Shown in pieces: positions 4,341-14,104 of a stretch of 14,563 bases of DNA. The stretch is from a bacterium (GTDB taxonomy: Bacteria; UBA8248). A model generated the notes under the pieces. That model made no database searches, was not told where the DNA came from, and saw only the letters and a list, made by a program, of their open reading frames with translations. The stretch is from NCBI GenBank assembly GCA_965213685.1, contig CBDBZY010000017.1, forward strand, positions 1 through 14,563, in the 5' to 3' direction. The translations under genes were made by a program, and so were the position numbers. Within the stretch, counting starts at the first letter, position 1. Every line of letters begins with the position of its first letter.

Positions 4341-4624
4341 GCCAGGAAGCCGCCCGCCCTGTAGGCCCGCAGCAAATGCGCCAGTGGAGCCCGCTACTCC
4401 TCCTCCTCGCGGGGGCAGGGGGCTATTTCGAGCTCCGGGCGACCCCTCAAATGGCCGAGGCGATCGGGCAGCAGCTCGACCGCCACGAGCGCCGGGGGCA
4501 TGAGGACCACCCCACCCGTGCCGAGCTCGACGCGCACCTCGAGAAGCACACCGCCATCGCCGAACAGATCCAGCGGACCCTCGAGCGGATCGAGGACCGG
4601 ATGGACGAACTCTCGAAGGACTGA
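4337..4624 (+). CDS. Small membrane-anchored His-rich coiled-coil protein, 95 aa
   Basis: AAGGGAG SD and ATGA overlap. Hydrophobic WSPLLLLLAGAGGYF, then a His-rich segment and heptad-like IAEQIQRTLERIEDRMDEL. Confidence 0.75.
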   Translation: MSQEAARPVGPQQMRQWSPLLLLLAGAGGYFELRATPQMAEAIGQQLDRHERRGHEDHPTRAELDAHLEKHTAIAEQIQRTLERIEDRMDELSKD

Positions 4625-4628
4625 CCCC

Positions 4629-5030
4629 ATGCGCAGACTCCTCGCCCTCCTCGTGCTCGCCCTCGCCCCCGCTTGCAAGACCGCCCCGGACGGGACGGTC
4701 ACCTTCGACCCTGAGGCCGCGAGCCTCGCCATGAGCATGGCTCAGGTGGAGATCGAAGCCGCCCGGATGGACCTCGCGGACTACCGGGTCCTCCGCCCTG
4801 AGGCGGAGTGGGTGGACGACGTGGACCAAGCCCTCAACGCGGTCTCCCTCGCGATCAACGCCTACCTCACGGCGACCGACGCCGGAGAGGAGGGGGAGAT
4901 GGAGCCCCTCCGGGCGGCCCTCGAGTTCGCCCTGGGGGCCACCGAGCCCCTCGTCGCTGACGAAAAGATGGGGCCCGAGATCATGCTCCTCCGAGGGATT
5001 CTGCGAAGAGCCCTGCTCTACACGGAGTAG
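4629..5030 (+). CDS. Putative lipoprotein, 133 aa
   Basis: ATG 4629 follows GAAGGA (4615-4620). MRRLLALLVLALAPAC is a signal peptide with a lipobox-like Cys16, followed by an acidic helical body. The ORF-track start at 4500 is an overextension. Confidence 0.75.
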   Translation: MRRLLALLVLALAPACKTAPDGTVTFDPEAASLAMSMAQVEIEAARMDLADYRVLRPEAEWVDDVDQALNAVSLAINAYLTATDAGEEGEMEPLRAALEFALGATEPLVADEKMGPEIMLLRGILRRALLYTE

Positions 5031-5034
5031 CCGA

Positions 5035-5211
5035 CCCCGGGCCCCGGGGACCCCCCCCACCCCCAAGGGACACCCCGACGGTGTCCGGGAAGGGGTGTCG
5101 GCCCGCCGAACGTCGAGGTACGGGCTGGGAAAGAGGGAAGCCCGGCCTCTCAAAGGTTGCGGTTTCTGACGAGTTGGAGGAGGCGTCAGAGCTAGCCCCG
5201 CTCGAACGAGC
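5035..5211. repeat. Cluster of GC-rich inverted repeats in the late/early intergenic region
   Basis: CCCCGG/CCGGGG (5035-5049); GGACACC/GGTGTCC (5068-5086) with alternative GACACCCC/GGGGTGTC (5069-5099); CGGGCT/AGCCCG (5121-5144); TCTGACG/CGTCAGA (5165-5190); GCTC-GAAC-GAGC (5200-5211). No U-tract follows any of them. Confidence 0.6.
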
Positions 5212-5230
5212 CGACGGCGGAACTATGCCC

Positions 5231-5259
5231 TTGCGCTCCCGACCTGTCCACCGCAGAAT
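5231..5259 (+). promoter_or_regulatory. Putative sigma70-type early promoter
   Basis: TTGCGC (5231-5236), 17-nt spacer, CAGAAT (5254-5259), directly upstream of the HTH gene and the early operon. Confidence 0.45.
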
Positions 5260-5284
5260 TCTAGAACCGTGGCAAGTTCTAGAA
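5259..5284. promoter_or_regulatory. Putative operator: two TTCTAGAA palindromes forming a 9-bp inverted repeat
   Basis: TTCTAGAAC (5259-5267), CGTGGCAA, GTTCTAGAA (5276-5284). AT-rich in a GC-rich context. Overlaps the putative -10/TSS and the HTH start codon. Confidence 0.6.
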
Positions 5285-5508
5285 ACAGGGAATGGAGTCC
5301 GGGAGCCTTCGCGCGCCGGCTCGATCAGGTGGGAATGACCGTTGCCGACCTCCACAGGCGGCTTTCGAGGGACCTCCCAGACCCGCCCAGCGTGGCGACC
5401 GTGTACTCCTGGAGGAAGGCGGGCTCTCGTGGCCCGCGGTTCCAAGCGTGGGGGGCTGCGGTTGCCGCCGCCCTCCGCTGCCGGCTCGGGGTATTGTTCT
5501 CAAAGTGA
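5269..5508 (+). CDS. XRE/Cro-like helix-turn-helix transcriptional regulator, 79 aa
   Basis: FARRLDQVGMTVADLHRRL..PSVATVYSWRKAGSRGPR..AAVAAALRCRLGVLF follows the XRE HTH pattern. It is the first gene of the early operon. The GTG start has no SD. Confidence 0.75.
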   Translation: MASSRNREWSPGAFARRLDQVGMTVADLHRRLSRDLPDPPSVATVYSWRKAGSRGPRFQAWGAAVAAALRCRLGVLFSK

Positions 5509-5615
5509 AAGCGGAGAGTGCCCAACGCGCACGGGCGAGAGCTCCCAAACCAGTCGAATCAGGGGGCCGCGCCCCTGGAGAGCGCCGAGCGGGGTGAGAG
5601 GCCCGCGTCCCCCCC

Positions 5616-6647
5616 ATGATCGAAAAACTCGAGCTCGAGGTCCCCGGTGAGGGCTCCCTCCGCCAAGAGGAGCGCGAGCGGTGGCTCGAGGCCCGCAAGG
5701 GCACCCTGGGAGGCTCTGGCGCCGCGGTGGCCGTCGGCATGGGCCGGCACGGGTCCCGGATGCGTCTGTGGGCCGAGATGACGGGCAAGGTCCCCCCGGA
5801 GGACATCAGCCGGAAGGAATACGTCTACTGGGGCAACGCCCTCGAGGGCACCGTCGTGGAGGAGCTCGGCCGGCGGACGAAGTTCCGCCCCACGGACTGG
5901 AACGAATCGCCGGATCCCCCCTGGCGGGGGTTCATGGAGGACGCGGAGCACATGGGGGCCTTCGATATCAAGGCCGACGCGCGCGACCGCTATCAGCACC
6001 TCTACCGCTCCAAGGCCCGCCACTGGCAGACGCTCTCCCCCGATGCCTTCTGCAACCACCCCGAGCATGGGCTCGGCCTCGTGGAGGCGAAGACCGTAGG
6101 TGTCCGCTCGTCGCCCGACTGGAGGGACTCGCCGCCCGAGTGGGTGCAGCTTCAGATTGCGCACGGCCTCGCCGTGACGGGGCTCCCCTACGGCGTGATC
6201 GTTGCCCTCGTCGGGGGACAGCAACTCCTCGCCTACATGGTCGAGCGCGACGATGAGCTGATCGAGCTCCTCAACGAGCGCGAGGCGGACTTCATGGAGC
6301 TCGTGGAAACAAAGGTCCCCCCGGAAACGGACGACCACCCCGACACGCTTGCGACCGTGAAGGAGCTCTATCCCACAGGGAACAAGCGACGGGTTGTCTT
6401 GCCCGAGAGCGCGCTCCACTGGGATGAGGTGCTGCAGCAAGCGAAGGCGGACGCGCGCGTTGCCGAAACCCTCGTGAAGGGGCTCGAGGCACGAATGCGC
6501 GCCATGATTGGGGAATACGAGTACGCTGAGATTCCAGGGGGAGAGTTCGAGTACACGCTCCGCACGCAGACCCGACCGGAGAGGATCACGGAAGCCTACT
6601 CCTACCGTGAGCTCCGCAGACGCAAACGCAGGAAGCCCCGCAAGTAA
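5616..6647 (+). CDS. YqaJ-family (lambda-exonuclease-like) viral recombinase exonuclease, 343 aa
   Basis: WLEARKGTLGGS..LWAEMTG..WGNALE, SPDA..LVEAKT (PD-(D/E)xK), QIAHGLAVTG, ALVGG, ERDDELI..F..VETKVPP are all characteristic YqaJ motifs. Confidence 0.92.
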   Translation: MIEKLELEVPGEGSLRQEERERWLEARKGTLGGSGAAVAVGMGRHGSRMRLWAEMTGKVPPEDISRKEYVYWGNALEGTVVEELGRRTKFRPTDWNESPDPPWRGFMEDAEHMGAFDIKADARDRYQHLYRSKARHWQTLSPDAFCNHPEHGLGLVEAKTVGVRSSPDWRDSPPEWVQLQIAHGLAVTGLPYGVIVALVGGQQLLAYMVERDDELIELLNEREADFMELVETKVPPETDDHPDTLATVKELYPTGNKRRVVLPESALHWDEVLQQAKADARVAETLVKGLEARMRAMIGEYEYAEIPGGEFEYTLRTQTRPERITEAYSYRELRRRKRRKPRK

Positions 6648-9015: not shown

Positions 9016-10414
9016 ATGAAGCTACTACTGCTCGCGTTCTTGGCCCTTTGGGCCCCGCAGGACACAGACATTCCCCCGACGAAGGAGGTGATTGAGGAGC
9101 TCGAGTCCGGGCAGCCCCCCGCCCCTCCGGACGTCAGCGAAACCCTCGAGGCCGTGGTCAAGGGCGCGCGGGGGAAGAATCTCAAAGAGATCGACCTCTC
9201 GGTCCGGCCTCCGGGCGAGGTCGGGGGGATGGACTTCAACTGGCCCGGGTGGACGGGCAACCGCACGAAGATCAACACGGAGGGATACGACGGGGTGCGT
9301 ATCCTCGGGCAGGGCGTCAACGCGACGGTTATCACGCCCGGGTACGAGGCCGCGTTCGTCTTCGGGCAGGGGACGGGGTTCGTCGAGATCTCGAACCTCA
9401 CGATCGTTTGCGGCAAGTCCTTCGGGATCAAGTGGGGTACGGCCCGGGGTGAGTGGGTCGACGACGGAAAGGGGGGCCAGCGGTACGTCGAGCGCCGCGA
9501 CACGCACTACCCCAACGACTTCCTCAGCCTCCGGAACGTTCGGGTTATCACCTCCGATCCGCCGCCGACAGGGCCGCGTACGACCACGAAGTGGGGCGTT
9601 CACACGATCAATGTGGACATTCACTTCCGAAACGTCGTTTTCGACATGCCCTATTCCGCGGAGCACGCGCTCTATGCGCACGGCTTCGCCAAGTACGGTG
9701 CCCTGTGGCGTGACGTCGTCATCGAGGCCGTGGGGGCGGAGGGCTTCAAGGCCGCATCGCGCCCCTGGGAGTGCTTCTGGGCGCCAGAGGCGCAGATCTT
9801 CATCGACCGTTGCGAGTTCCGAAACTTCAACCAGCCTTGGAGCTGGCGGGGTGGCGCGGGGATCGCTCTTGCGGGAAGTGGTGCGCAATACATCCACGTG
9901 AAGCGCTGTCTCTTTGTGGGGCGCCCCAACGAGGAGCCGGGCGGCCCGCCGAAGGATCAGCTCTTCATGATGAGCGACGGTCTCTCAACGATTCAGAGCG
10001 CGGAGAACAACCGCATGCGCTACTACGACCACAACGGGGTCCCCGGGGGTCCTGGGAGCGCGAATGGGCACGTTCTGATCGAGGATTCGGCCTTCCAGGG
10101 GTACGGAGGCGGGAACCGCGAGAACATCCGCTTGGGGACGCTCTACCCGGGCTACGAAGAGCTCGGACTTCCTCCCCACACAATCGCGCAGAGCTTTACC
10201 ATGCGTCGGTGCGCGTTCTACGGGCCCCCCTTCATGGGCAACCGAACGAGGGCATCGATCATGGACGTCGCGTTCGACAGGATCCACGTCCGTGAACAAC
10301 AACACCGAAGACCTCAAGACCCTGGCGGAGGAGGAGCTCGGGTTTGACACGCAGTTCGAGGGGTGGCTCTACACGGAGAGCGTGAGCCGACCTTTCAGTG
10401 AGGGCACGCGGTGA
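9016..10414 (+). CDS. Exported right-handed beta-helix (pectin-lyase-fold-like) protein; apparent +1 frameshift near 10284
   Basis: GAGGAGG SD and signal peptide MKLLLLAFLALWAPQD. Beta-helix-like rungs (VRILGQGVNATVI, VEISNLTI, LSLRNVRV, IHFRNVVF, IFIDRCEF, IHVKRCLF, VLIEDSAF, FTMRRCAF). As read it stops at 10347. Removing one C at 10284-10285 gives ..DRITSVNNNTEDLKTLAEEELGFDTQFEGWLYTESVSRPFSEGTR, whose TGA (10412-10414) overlaps the next GTG. Confidence 0.7.
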
Positions 10415-11043
10415 GGGCCCTTGTGGGCGCGCTCCTGCTGGGCACCGCGTTCGCGGTCCTGGCGCTGAGGGAGGAGCCCGCCCGGGAGCGCGAAGCTCCC
10501 ACGGTGAGAGAAGAGCAGCGGGGAGGGATTCCGAAGGACCGTCCGTCAGTGGTGGCGGCTCCAGAGGAGGAGACTCCGGGGGGATTCTCTTCCCTCCCCG
10601 CTCACCCCGCCCCCGAGCCCACGTTTGAGGAGCTCCTGCTCGCCGAGATCGAGCTCCAGGGTGCCGAGGATGAGGCGGGGCTCTGGTTTGACGCAGAGGC
10701 GGAGATCCTCAGCGACACGGCGCGGTACGCCCCCACGCGGGAGAACCTCGTGCAGCGTCTCAAGGACCTCCAGCTCGAGGCCCACCTCCTCGACCTCGAT
10801 CTCGACCGCATCCTCGAGAGTATCGAGCTCCAGGAGTGGCTGTACGCCGATGCTGCAGCCAACGCCGTTCAAGGGCTCTTCCTCGACACGGAGGAGACCA
10901 ACGAAACGCTCCTGCGACTCCGGGAGGAGCTGTCGCAGGTGCAGAGGGAGGCTTTTCGCCGTGTCCTCTTGGTCGATCGGCAACATGGGCCGGTCGCTCT
11001 CGAGGACTATCTCGCCACCATGTTTTCCGAGGAAAGCGAATGA
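10411..11043 (+). CDS. Membrane-anchored/exported acidic helical protein, 210 aa
   Basis: N-terminal MRALVGALLLGTAFAVLAL, a Pro/Glu linker, then a Glu/Leu-rich helical domain. Stop overlaps the next ATG. Confidence 0.75.
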   Translation: MRALVGALLLGTAFAVLALREEPAREREAPTVREEQRGGIPKDRPSVVAAPEEETPGGFSSLPAHPAPEPTFEELLLAEIELQGAEDEAGLWFDAEAEILSDTARYAPTRENLVQRLKDLQLEAHLLDLDLDRILESIELQEWLYADAAANAVQGLFLDTEETNETLLRLREELSQVQREAFRRVLLVDRQHGPVALEDYLATMFSEESE

Positions 11044-11456
11044 GGAAGCTACTAGCGACGCTGTGCGCTGCGCTGCTCCTGAGCGGCTCGGCCCTTGCTC
11101 AAGGGGTGAACTCCCCTTCCGTCAACAACGGCTCTCGTTGGGTCCACGAGGGTGGATACGAGGTCACGTTCAACGTGAAGGCCGATCATCTTCACAACTG
11201 CGGGGACCTCTCCGCGCGTGACTCTACGGGGAAGTCCGGGAAGGTTGGGATCACCCCCGGCCCGGGGGACTCTGCGAAGAAGTCTGGAATCGTCCACACC
11301 CCCGGCGGCAACTCCTACCGCGTGCGCGCGGGGAAAGCCCAAGTGAAGACACCCACGGGCTGGCAGAACATGAAGCCGGGCTCGGACGACGTCACCACCT
11401 CCCCGCTCGAGAAGGAGAAGGGCGGGAAGGAGTCCTCCCCGCCAACCCCGGGGTAG
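11040..11456 (+). CDS. Small secreted protein with Sec signal peptide, 138 aa
   Basis: ATGA overlap at 11040 with GAGGA upstream. MRKLLATLCAALLLSGSALA-Q has an A-x-A cleavage site. The mature part is Gly/Ser/Thr-rich and beta-like. Confidence 0.78.
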   Translation: MRKLLATLCAALLLSGSALAQGVNSPSVNNGSRWVHEGGYEVTFNVKADHLHNCGDLSARDSTGKSGKVGITPGPGDSAKKSGIVHTPGGNSYRVRAGKAQVKTPTGWQNMKPGSDDVTTSPLEKEKGGKESSPPTPG

Positions 11457-11464
11457 GTTTCTCC

Positions 11465-11806
11465 AGCCCGCGCGCGGGAACCGTCACTCTTGGGGGCAAG
11501 AGGGCGCGCGGGCTTCGCACTCTCACTACCTCTTGCGCCCTCCCCCTTGGGCCCCGCCGCGTACGGGCATTCGCGCGGCGGGGCCCTCTTCGTGGAAAAG
11601 AGGGAGCCCGAGAGAGGTCGCCGAGTCTCGGGCTCCCAGGTGCCGTGGGTTGTGGGGTCGACCGAGGGGGGGCACAACCCGTTGGGGCACCGCGCAGGGG
11701 GATCGTACCTGAAAAAGCGAAGGCCGCCCCACCGAGGCGGAGAGGGCGACCTTGCCGTGTCGAAGCCCGTGACATAGGCTCCAACGAATGAAGTTGGCAT
11801 CTTCGA
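11465..11806. ncRNA. Candidate structured RNA / cis-regulatory leader upstream of the replication gene
   Basis: Consecutive perfect stems: 11 bp (11465-11475/11504-11514), 13 bp (11549-11561/11574-11586), 12 bp (11602-11613/11626-11637), 6+8 bp (11639-11644/11686-11691 and 11647-11654/11673-11680). Also a 10-bp one-mismatch stem (11720-11729/11744-11753). No convincing CDS. Confidence 0.55.
11712..11755 (-). terminator. Putative intrinsic terminator on the minus strand
   Basis: The minus strand reads GCAAGGUCGCCC-loop-GGGCGGCCUUCGC-UUUUU. The plus-strand C/A mismatch becomes a G-U pair on the minus strand, and the hairpin is followed by a U5 tract (A5 at 11712-11716). Confidence 0.45.
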
Positions 11807-11820
11807 GAGCAGTGTAGCCC

Positions 11821-12709
11821 ATGAGCCGCAAGGGTAAGCCTGTGGCTTTCCAGTTCTACGCAGCGGACTGGAGGGGGGACCCACAGGTGCAGCGGATGAC
11901 TTTCGCGGCGCGCGGGGTCTACATCGAGCTCCTGGCGTGTGCGTTCCAGGACCGGGGCCGCCTCCCTGGGGATCCAGAGGAGATCCGTCGGGTGGCTGGC
12001 GTGGACCGCGACGAGTGGCTCGAGGTGTGGGGGCAGCTCGAGCGCCACTGGCCCGTGATCGACGGCGAGCGCCACAACCCGAAGTTGACGCGAGTCATGG
12101 AGGAGCAGACGGGAGCACCGGGAAAAAAGGTCCGAGGCGGGCAAGGCGGGAGCGGCGGCCCGATGGCAATCGCATAGCGATCGCAATGCGGACGCAATGC
12201 CAAGGGGTATGGCAAACGATAGCTCTCCTTCTCCTTCTCCTTCTCCTTCTCCTTCTCCTTCTCCTACTCCAGGAGCAGAAGAACCCGCGCGTGCGCGCGA
12301 GGGGGGGGCTTCGCCCCCGGAGGCTTCGCCTCCCCCCCCTGCCGCTGCTCCTCGATCGAAGGCGGTCTCTTGGGAAGAGGCTCTGTCCAGCCACCCGGAG
12401 CTCTTGGGGGCCCCTGGGGTGCTCGAGGCCCTCCGGGACTGGCAGGACATGAGGCGGCGCAAGAAGTGTCCGCTCACTCCGCTAGGCGCCGCCCGAGCGG
12501 CCGCCACCCTCGCGCGGATTTCCCCGACCCCCGACGCGGCCGTGAGGTACATCCAGGTGGCGACCGATTGCGGCTGGAGAAGCTTCCACGTCCCGAAGGG
12601 TGAGCAGGGGCGAGAGGAGTTCTCTCTCCGTGGCCCAGAGGTCGTCGGGAATCCATTTTTGACCCGCAAGCTCCGTGAAGAGGCGGAGGGTAGCTATGGG
12701 CCAGGTTGA
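11821..12709 (+). CDS. Phage replication initiator, DUF1376/YdaU-like N-terminus; split by apparent +1 frameshift near 12109
   Basis: FQFYAADWRGD..MTFAARGVYIELL..GRLPGD..NPKL is a DUF1376-type N-terminus. The +1 frame continues REHREKRSEAGKAGAAARW, a typical following motif, and joins ORF 12197-12709. That ORF has an (SP)7 linker and a C-terminal DWQDMRRRKKCPLT..GWRSF initiator-like domain. Joined length is 295 aa. Confidence 0.8.
12163..12223 (+). repeat. Degenerate 11-bp-period iteron-like repeats inside the initiator gene (candidate replication origin)
   Basis: ATGGCAATCGC / ATAGCGATCGC / AATGCGGACGC / AATGCCAAGGG then ATGGCAAACG-ATAGC. The position in the inter-domain linker matches lambda-O-type origins. 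Confidence 0.5.
12224..12265 (+). repeat. Perfect hexamer microsatellite (TCTCCT)7 encoding (Ser-Pro)7
   Basis: Directly visible in the sequence. Confidence 0.95.
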
Positions 12710-13381: not shown

Positions 13382-13668
13382 GCAACGAAACGCAGAAGAA
13401 GCCGATCCTCCTTTGCGCGGGCCAGAATGGGCGCGCGCTCGTCTACGGGTACGTCTCCGAGGAGCCCTCCCCGGGGGAGCCTGTGGAGCTGGGGAGGGCC
13501 CGGATGGTGATCAGCTACCCATCGGGGGGGACGTTTGGGCTGGCCGCTGTGGGGCCCCCGGAAGGGTCGAGGGTGACGCACGCCGTGTCGCGGGTAGTTG
13601 AGACGGCGTGGCAGGAGTGGCTCGAGGTGAGCCCAGCGGCGGCGGAGGCTTTCGATGGCTGGACTTAG
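13378..13668 (+). CDS. Conserved small phage protein, DUF6948-like, 96 aa
   Basis: RALVYGY..VELGRARMVISY..GTFGLAAVGP..SRV..V..EVSPAAAEAF resembles the DUF6948-type phage family that usually neighbours GYGDG-repeat genes. Family name assigned from memory of the motif. Confidence 0.6.
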   Translation: MSNETQKKPILLCAGQNGRALVYGYVSEEPSPGEPVELGRARMVISYPSGGTFGLAAVGPPEGSRVTHAVSRVVETAWQEWLEVSPAAAEAFDGWT

Positions 13669-14104
13669 CGGATCCAGGCTCGGGTCCGGGTACGGGTACG
13701 GGGACGGGTACGGGGACGGGGCCGGGTTCGGGTCCGGGTGCGGGACCGGGCTCGGGTCCGGGTACGGGGACGGGGACGGGTACGGGGACGGGTTCGGGGA
13801 CGGGTCCGGGCTCGGATTCGGGTTCGGGGGCGGGGACGGGTCCGGGCTCGGATTCGGGTTCGGGGGCGGGACCGGGCTCGGATTCGGGTTCGACGGGCAC
13901 GGGGACTTCGCTGGGACGCTAGGCGACTACAGCGTCATAGTCTTCCCGCCCTGGGGTTACGTTGCCGTCGGGTGCGAAGTGCACCCTCTCAGCTATTGGC
14001 TTGTCGCTCTCGATGAGATCGCAAAGCGGAACAAGGAGGAGGGCCTTATCGAGGAGGCCGATGAGCTGCTAAGGTCAATCGCAATCAAACTAGAAACAAC
14101 ATGA
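13655..14104 (+). CDS. Glycine-rich (Gly-X)n GYGDG-repeat phage protein with C-terminal VGCExH..W domain, 149 aa
   Basis: GGAGG SD at 13644-13648. GSGYGYGDGYGDGAGFGSG... followed by YVAVGCEVHPLSYW. ATGA overlap with the next gene. Confidence 0.8.
   Translation: MAGLSGSRLGSGYGYGDGYGDGAGFGSGCGTGLGSGYGDGDGYGDGFGDGSGLGFGFGGGDGSGLGFGFGGGTGLGFGFDGHGDFAGTLGDYSVIVFPPWGYVAVGCEVHPLSYWLVALDEIAKRNKEEGLIEEADELLRSIAIKLETT
13682..13906 (+). repeat. Degenerate (GGGNNC)n hexamer tandem array with higher-order duplications
   Basis: Near-continuous GGG-NNC units. GGGGACGGGTCCGGGCTCGGATTCGGGTTCGGGGGC is present twice in tandem, with a partial third copy. Confidence 0.9.

Follow-up and report, generated by a model that had tools for sequence, protein, structure and literature searches.

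Between positions 11457 and 11820 of contig C17, a fragment of a tailed phage or prophage that was analysed over its entire 14.5 kb (the window), a 364-nt gap of non-coding DNA holds six hairpins directly upstream of a DUF1376-type gene, the first gene of a replication module. The contig belongs to a mixed 7.97-Mb assembly (G000). The existence of the hairpin cluster is a solid observation: the cluster is real, lies far beyond chance, consists of different perfect hairpins and is unique in the 3.07 Mb of sequence with high GC (guanine plus cytosine) content. The explanation that we consider best, and hold tentatively at somewhat less than even confidence, is that the gap forms the boundary between two rightward operons, that terminator-type hairpins stand face to face within it, and that the leftward RNA is most simply a small one of ~90 nt. 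The GC content of the gap is 0.65–0.71, and its structural elements, with a prime for folds of the minus strand, are the following:

11465–11475 paired with 11504–11514, plus strand: H1, a perfect 11-bp stem with a 28-nt loop; −31.8 kcal/mol on the plus strand and −29.7 on the minus strand
11549–11561 paired with 11574–11586, plus strand: H2, a 12-nt loop closed by a perfect 13-bp stem of G/C pairs only; on the plus strand TCTTCGTGG comes next
11587–11601, both strands: the 15-nt spacer TCTTCGTGGAAAAGA between H2 and H3
11602–11613 paired with 11626–11637, minus strand: H3, a perfect 12-bp stem with a 12-nt loop and the minus-strand tail UCUUUUCC / TCTTTTCC
11639–11691, strand of action undecided: H4, a stem of 6+8(+1) bp; −27.2 kcal/mol on the plus strand and −21.8 on the minus strand
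11712–11756, minus strand: H5′ with its U-run, a 14-bp stem with one bulge and three G·U pairs (11756–11716), then UUUU(U) to 11712; −26.5 kcal/mol on the minus strand and −19.8 on the plus strand
11759–11785, minus strand only: H6′, a 10-bp hairpin with three G·U pairs, which become C·A mismatches on the plus strand

A preliminary description of the window had listed five long stems here. The perfect stems of 11, 13 and 12 bp (H1 to H3) were recovered at the positions it gave, as was the composite stem of H4, formed by GGTGCC/GGCACC (11639–11644/11686–11691) plus GGGTTGTG/CACAACCC. Its last stem, of 10 bp, was correctly placed at 11721–11730/11745–11754, but it contains a C·A mismatch on the plus strand that turns into a G·U pair on the minus strand, where it forms part of H5′. 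The 36 bp of the H1–H3 stems are pure Watson–Crick pairs with no G·U; H1 and H3 are slightly more stable on the plus strand than on the minus strand, and H4 clearly so. H1 begins 8 nt beyond the last stop codon of the upstream operon, encloses in its loop a 6-bp mini-hairpin (CTCTTG GGGG CAAGAG, 11487–11502), and is taken to be the rightward operon's first hairpin of terminator type. Once H1 forms, a C/U-rich, G-poor linker (11515–11548) is left single-stranded. H2 is likewise read as a terminator-type hairpin, and H3 as a leftward terminator opposing it. The spacer between the two is T-rich behind H2 on the plus strand and behind H3 on the minus strand (TCTTTTCCACGAAGA), which places the two hairpins face to face across a stretch that is T-rich whichever way it is read. 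Together with 3 nt from each flanking stem, the spacer also makes up the palindrome CCCTCTT/AAGAGGG (11584–11604), a pairing already noticed in the preliminary description. The heptamer ACCGAGG (CCUCGGU on the minus strand) occurs at 11661–11667 and 11731–11737, in the apical loops of H4 and H5, which accounts for two of the five copies in the window; the loop of H3 carries the shorter CCGAG.

The density of these structures was compared with that of the window, the assembly and shuffled sequence. Perfect stems of at least 11 bp with a loop of at most 40 nt occur three times in the whole window, and all three are inside the gap. The 49 contigs of more than 60% GC (~3.07 Mb; 3,074,173 bases) contain 145 such stems (0.047 per kb), and the two pairs of neighbours that lie closest together both belong to the gap; the remaining contigs have a GC content of ~33–54% and are packed with microsatellites. 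Across the assembly, six loci including the gap have at least three of these hairpins inside 250 nt, and the other five are tandem copies of one palindrome in low-GC contigs. Complementary segments of at least 8 nt number nine in the gap as compared with 1.95 ± 1.41 in dinucleotide shuffles; none of the 2000 shuffles and none of the 147 other 364-nt windows of the contig reached nine.

Folding energies revealed a pronounced asymmetry between the strands. The expectation that the gap folds better than shuffled sequence held well on the minus strand (whole-gap RNAfold z-score of −5.22, with 0 of 100 shuffles as good) and only in part on the plus strand (−2.51, 1 of 100), and the 100 nt nearest to the replication gene are significant on the minus strand alone: for 11706–11806, the z-score was −3.59 on the minus strand (0 of 200 shuffles as good) versus −1.30 on the plus strand (26 of 200). 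This segment has a strand-specific stable fold with a terminator-like end, on the minus strand. In sliding windows of 120 nt, the gap contained the best GC-corrected windows on both strands, yet these reached only z ~ −2.8. Two features were defined in this right-hand part:

11712–11804, minus strand: a candidate small leftward RNA of ~90 nt, composed of H6′, H5′ and the U-run, with a putative 5′ end placed solely from the −10-like hexamer TACACT at 11816–11811
11752–11780, plus strand: a weak promoter-like sequence, TTGCCG-17-TAGGCT (7/12), which could start the replication operon ~33 nt before the ATG

Hexamers of the form TANNNT are scarce in this region, with only five in 11400–12000 on both strands together, and TACACT is placed for a start at ~11804. 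It matches the −10 consensus at 4/6 positions and has a poor −35 partner (3/6); TACGAT (11707–11702) is a second −10-like candidate on the minus strand. Runs of five T (T5) occur only three times on the minus strand of the window, and H5′ with its U-run is the best intrinsic-terminator-like site in the gap. A terminator scan of 10900–12400 returned three sites, all on the minus strand and one of them at 11740–11724, as compared with 1.2 ± 0.9 in shuffles. Two minus-strand stems are followed by a U-rich tail, namely H5′ (14 bp and U5) and H3′ (12 bp and UCUUUUCC).

Taken in order, the steps of the proposed boundary would be as follows. Transcripts of the upstream operon, which extends from the recombination genes to a gene for a secreted protein, would end or gain stability at H1 and H2. 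Transcription in the leftward direction would end at H5′ and its U5 run, with H3′ and UCUUUUCC serving as a back-stop. The leftward transcript would most likely be a small non-coding RNA of ~90 nt, running from 11804 to 11712 through H6′ and then the terminator H5′. Such an RNA would start right beside the beginning of the DUF1376-type gene, would be antisense to any leader of the replication mRNA, and would be convergent with the promoter of that operon; it might affect the replication genes.

Several observations weigh against this explanation. On the plus strand, H1 and H2 lack a proper U-tract (three and four T in 9 nt), terminator loops tend to be shorter than the 12 and 28 nt seen here, and termination would not call for as many as six hairpins. 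The window contains no minus-strand gene to the right of the gap that would need a terminator. No promoter-like site around the gap reached 9/12 in a tool scan or 8/12 in our own scan on either strand, and the candidate −10 boxes have −35 partners with matches at only 2–4 of 6 positions. The H3–H4 unit (11594–11697) shows no strand preference by z-score (−3.93 on the minus strand, −3.56 on the plus strand), and its absolute energy is better on the plus strand. A T5 run would be expected beside some hairpin end by coincidence in ~5% of cases, by a rough estimate for a gap so dense in hairpins. In the high-GC contigs, hairpins of −26 kcal/mol or below were found at 36 of 4792 T5 runs as compared with 23 of 4792 random positions; the association is weak there, and the U-run therefore adds little weight. 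A crude scan of the window for hairpins with T-tails was too noisy for use.

The genomic context of comparable hairpins was also surveyed, and it speaks in favour of hairpins of terminator type. Among the 145 perfect hairpins of the high-GC contigs, 105 lie outside called genes, and these include only 8 in divergent, 46 in convergent and 45 in co-directional settings, counts that depend on crude gene calls and in which ~24 rows represent one redundant locus. In IMG/VR, 22 viral loci (L084–L105; 66–73% GC) have the same 12-nt G/C arms as H2 around other loops; some of these loci are copies of each other. In 20 of the 22 the arms are outside crudely called genes, several being 20–39 nt past a gene end, and several loci have TTCGTG-like tails that resemble the tail of H2 in the gap. 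In our reading, these loci have converged on a G/C stem of maximal stability and are not homologous.

A different account, which we regard as rather unlikely, treats the gap as a cis-acting leader or a processed RNA of the plus strand, in which alternative pairings would gate read-through into, or translation of, the DUF1376-type gene by the logic of P4 CI RNA, P1 C4 RNA or an attenuator. All genes being rightward, the gap is likely to be transcribed on the plus strand unless termination is complete. The alternative pairings named in the preliminary description do exist: 11492–11503 can pair with 11529–11540 (92% complementary), and the octamer AGGTCGCC in the loop of H3 (11615–11622) is complementary to 11745–11752 in an arm of H5, a kind of match that is expected about twice per region by chance. 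Folding of the isolated left part of the gap gave a further competitor:

11492–11546, plus strand: an alternative helix of 5+9 bp (11492–11496 and 11500–11508 with 11533–11546) that excludes the 3′ arm of H1 and is the minimum-energy fold of the isolated left part

This helix and H1 are near-isoenergetic and mutually exclusive, as a plus-strand switch would have it. The greater plus-strand stability of H4, and the slight one of H1 and H3, point in the same direction, as do the clustering of AAGAGGG/CCCTCTT (three of the four copies of AAGAGGG in the window lie at 11498–11604) and a mild enrichment of long-range complementary 8-mers, which taken alone is borderline (five observed; 100 of 2000 shuffles and 3 of the 147 other windows had at least five). 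Set against these points are the modest z-scores of the plus strand, just −2.51 for the gap, −2.02 for its left part and −1.30 for the gene-proximal 100 nt. Moreover, no alternative pairing competes with H2, the sole plus-strand hairpin with a partial U-tail: the helix that excludes H1 leaves H2 untouched, none of the plus-strand hairpins after H2 (H3 to H5) has a U-tail, and no coherent terminator/antiterminator topology emerged. The switch or attenuator of the preliminary description is accordingly not supported.

Comparison with known RNAs and with related loci bears on the same account. A search of the whole window with Rfam 15 at the gathering score, covering C4 antisense RNA, isrK, riboswitches, ribozymes and group I/II introns among others, gave no match, in agreement with the earlier statement that the dense structure belongs to no known family. 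At an expectation value (E) of up to 10, the region 11300–11950 gave eight weak matches; the highest score was 20.3 bits, where the cut-off is 106, and no match was of C4 or CI type. ARAGORN detected no transfer RNA or transfer-messenger RNA gene in the window. Nor is there a conserved gap ahead of related DUF1376 genes. In 57 distantly related DUF1376 loci the gene overlaps an upstream open reading frame (ORF) in 33, follows a gap of 12–726 nt in 19, and has no upstream ORF within the locus in 5; these assignments follow a crude stop-to-stop rule, leave out two loci that match elsewhere in the protein (L032 and L033), and come from rows that are non-independent, several contigs being present in two collections. 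The neighbourhoods of DUF1376 genes therefore do not share a structured gap as a trait of the family. No nucleotide words of 9 or more were shared between the gap and six other gaps. Judged by title, none of the listed papers on DUF1376 addresses this question.

The absence of coding potential in the gap, also claimed beforehand, was borne out. Every ORF and frame of the gap scored −0.03 bits per codon or less in codon log-odds, against 0.25–0.59 for the 14 called genes (leave-one-out), and no ORF of the gap matched Pfam or PHROG. The plus-strand ORF 11490–11777 had been considered as a gene on account of its GC content at third codon positions (GC3, 0.80–0.87 in frame) and was rejected, with codon log-odds of −0.03 and no Pfam or PHROG family.

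Since the hairpins occupy the site directly upstream of the replication module, they might also act as DNA or single-stranded DNA, that is, as an origin of replication, as a site of primosome assembly or single-strand initiation, or as binding sites for the initiator or a regulator, with the AAGAGGG copies among them; we consider this decidedly unlikely. The lack of G·U pairs in the 36 bp of H1 to H3, by which both strands fold alike, would suit such an element, and so would the five occurrences of (C)AAGAG(GG) in either orientation within 11487–11604, two of them as palindromes, and the presence of ACCGAGG in both the H4 and the H5 loop. On the other hand, the gap contains no iteron-like direct repeats, for which three or more copies of ~17–22 bp would be expected (only two-copy repeats of 9–14 nt occur), no tandem repeat and no A+T-rich stretch, its GC content being as given above. 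The three perfect palindromes are unrelated in sequence and have arm spacings of 24–39 bp, which are ill-suited to one dimeric binder, and loops of 12–28 nt disfavour cruciforms. The right-hand hairpins are strand-specific by virtue of their G·U pairs. Lambda-type origins sit inside the O-like gene, and a more origin-like repeat block is found inside the next ORF, where (TCTCCT)7.8 at 12224–12270 is followed by a G8/C8 inverted repeat at 12300–12340.

Searches for relatives of the gap returned the gap itself and nothing else. A blastn search against 50,697 phage records was empty, no second copy was found in the 7.97-Mb assembly (best non-self match at E 0.78), and 60 related genomes gave no match to the gap, the only matches being to the low-complexity segment 12222–12329. 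A covariance model built from the single sequence (R1) recovered only the window among 42 genomes of the family including its own; the best other match was partial, at E 0.0075 per genome and 21.8 bits. The exact H3 pattern was absent from the viral contigs searched. At the protein level, the DUF1376 protein had no match in 41 other genomes of the family and none by tblastn in phages, and tblastn of viral, genome and metagenome contigs yielded distant relatives only, with at most 53% identity over partial segments. Neighbouring proteins had no relatives in viral contigs. The RecE-like protein matched 196 phage records by tblastn, all below 60% identity, with 25–30% identity among the 12 matches listed. 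The phage is thus without close relatives in any collection searched, and the gap is a single-copy orphan.

This isolation would fit a gap that has no dedicated function, being instead a recombination scar, a decayed junction remnant with template-switch palindromes, or a single-copy mobile palindromic insertion, a reading that we judge very unlikely. No relative carries the element, perfect stems without G·U pairs could be evolutionarily young, and the DUF1376 gene lacks an upstream gap in 33 of the 57 related loci. The structure also argues the other way: decay would hardly yield six hairpins that differ from one another, have T-rich tails consistent with their orientation and include G·U pairs specific to one strand, and the cluster is unique in the high-GC sequence. 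A mobile repeat was not seen, there being no second copy in the assembly.

Mimicry of a clustered regularly interspaced short palindromic repeat (CRISPR), by which an RNA anti-CRISPR or solitary repeat units would sequester host Cas proteins, is extremely unlikely. H1 gave a weak match to CRISPR-DR28 (E 9.4; 15.4 bits, the cut-off being 35), and it seems to resemble type I-E repeats. The high-GC contigs of the assembly carry two CRISPR arrays with 36-nt repeats, at C5:47903–50310 (33 copies) and C48:16385–28241 (161 copies). These repeats are unlike any hairpin of the gap, and the mimicry was rejected; a blastn-short search of both arrays against the window produced one 14-nt match elsewhere, at 5755–5768. 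No spacer of the two arrays matched the phage contig by blastn-short.

The preferred explanation, a boundary of facing terminators with a small leftward RNA, was compared with known systems. In lambda, where oop lies between cII and the initiator gene O, the antisense oop RNA is transcribed leftward from pO, a promoter that reaches into gene O, ends at the hairpin tO, and overlaps 52 nt of cII (PMC5869508). The candidate RNA resembles pO-oop-tO in being short and leftward, in lying in a rightward early region beside the initiator gene, and in its hairpin-terminator end; its candidate promoter would reach into the replication gene like pO, with the −10 box at 11816–11811 and the ATG of the gene at 11821. 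It differs in having no sequence or Rfam relation to OOP, and it would stay clear of the upstream coding region, which ends at 11456. It would act on the promoter or the leader of the replication operon. Countertranscripts of plasmids, such as RNAII of pMV158, RNAIII of pIP501 and CopA of R1, are RNAs of ~50–150 nt that contain stem-loops, carry an intrinsic terminator and lie antisense to the rep-gene leader. The candidate, a ~90-nt stem-loop RNA with a terminator opposite the leader of a replication initiator, is similar in layout. It differs in belonging to a phage, in having no homology to the countertranscripts, and in that the plus-strand leader offers nothing that could be defined as a target hairpin or attenuator. 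Both the RNA and its promoter are putative, there is no homology, and we do not claim membership in the OOP or countertranscript families.

Other known systems share parts of the arrangement. Bidirectional terminators and the U-tract-poor "I-shaped" terminators of high-GC bacteria likewise have perfect G/C stems beyond gene ends, and the two-way T-rich spacer of H2 and H3 fits this type; here, unlike there, six hairpins stand in a row, the loops are 12–28 nt long, and no convergent protein gene is present. The P4 CI and P1/P7 C4 RNAs are also structured non-coding RNAs of a phage early region located upstream of replication functions, but the gap has no Rfam match to them at E ≤ 10 and no repeated target boxes (seqA/seqC, a/b), its direct repeats being of 9–14 nt in two copies. 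Repetitive extragenic palindromic (REP) sequences and miniature inverted-repeat transposable elements (MITEs) are similarly intergenic and G/C-rich and can stabilise the upstream mRNA, whereas the gap is single-copy in the assembly and absent from the 60 related genomes. The kind of locus, a terminator stack with a possible antisense RNA before replication genes, is known; its sequence belongs to no known family.

A bolder version of the preferred explanation, which we hold to be unlikely, would make the gap an RNA control locus of an unsampled phage lineage. One or two tandem leftward small RNAs (11804–11712 and perhaps 11695–11598), each with a body and a terminator hairpin with C-rich CUCGG loops, would face a double upstream terminator and would time the replication module by antisense pairing and convergent-promoter interference, forming a new RNA family with no Rfam relative. 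If the boundary reading is true, it would reveal the way in which a high-GC phage of an unsampled lineage keeps its replication genes insulated from the upstream operon, and it would add an OOP-like or countertranscript-like RNA to a lineage with none known. As the element is a single-copy orphan, no family can be defined yet, and it will be of little practical use before relatives or transcript data become available.

The genes of C17 all run rightward, in the order of a 1322-aa virion structural protein, a RecE/YqaJ exonuclease, a DUF1064 resolvase-like protein, several unknowns, the gap, the DUF1376-type gene and an O-like ORF. Those next to the gap are:

11040–11456, plus strand: the last gene of the upstream operon, 138 aa, with an N-terminal signal-peptide-like segment MRKLLATLCAALLLSGSALAQ; codon score 0.327
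11821–12177, plus strand: the DUF1376-type gene, 118 aa, first of the replication module; PF07120 at 25.9 bits (below the cut-off of 30.1), matches to phrog_9327, phrog_3992 and phrog_678, and tblastn relatives
12197–12709, plus strand: the ORF next after the DUF1376-type gene, with a weak lambda-O-like C-terminal match

The protein of 11040–11456 had no match in Pfam or PHROG. The start codon of the gene overlaps, in the sequence ATGA, with the stop codon of the preceding gene (10411–11043); on this basis the gene closes an operon and is no free-standing moron. The PHROG matches of the DUF1376 protein are annotated as "primosomal protein". DNA contigs from three runs were identical to the window across 10800–12032, at a depth of ~2x, and 12033–12301 was uncovered. 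Near the end of the DUF1376 ORF, an in-frame −1 slippery heptamer, A_AAA_AAG (GGA AAA AAG), is located at 12123–12129. Relative to this ORF, the O-like ORF 12197–12709 is in the +1 frame and a 171-aa ORF at 11937–12452 is in the −1 frame; the initiator is possibly split, frameshifted or mis-assembled. Comparison with one locus (L039) for a split initiator showed no similarity.

At the 5′ end of the O-like ORF, a repeat block at 12224–12340 consists of (TCTCCT)x7.8, which encodes SPSPSP..., GCGCGTGCGCGCG, and then an inverted repeat, AGGGGGGGG...CCCCCCCCT, around two copies of GGCTTCGCC. By analogy with lambda ori it could be an in-gene origin, or it could be a mere linker.

The gap was said beforehand to be the largest of the window; by gene calls, 5031–5615 is larger, with 585 nt that contain no confident gene, although they include small ORFs of doubtful status that had no Pfam match. 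This segment includes a 9-bp palindrome, TTCTAGAAC-N8-GTTCTAGAA (5259–5284), which adjoins the window's one sigma-70-like site (minus strand, 5250–5222), and it may be an early-gene regulatory region. The only sizeable minus-strand ORF with gene-like GC values at the three codon positions (GC1/2/3 of 0.77/0.50/0.83) lies at 4394–4741 and matches no Pfam family. Beyond the phage contig, ~4.9 Mb of the assembly (C2, C7, C16, C18, C41, C51, C64 and others) has ~33–54% GC with (CA)n/(GGGA)n-type microsatellites, and these low-GC contigs look eukaryotic and outside the bacterial genome. Inside the ORF 13655–14104 of the window, an imperfect tandem array at 13673–13892 (period 6/12/30, CGGGTA-like, ~30 copies) is probably a G-rich repetitive segment of the protein.

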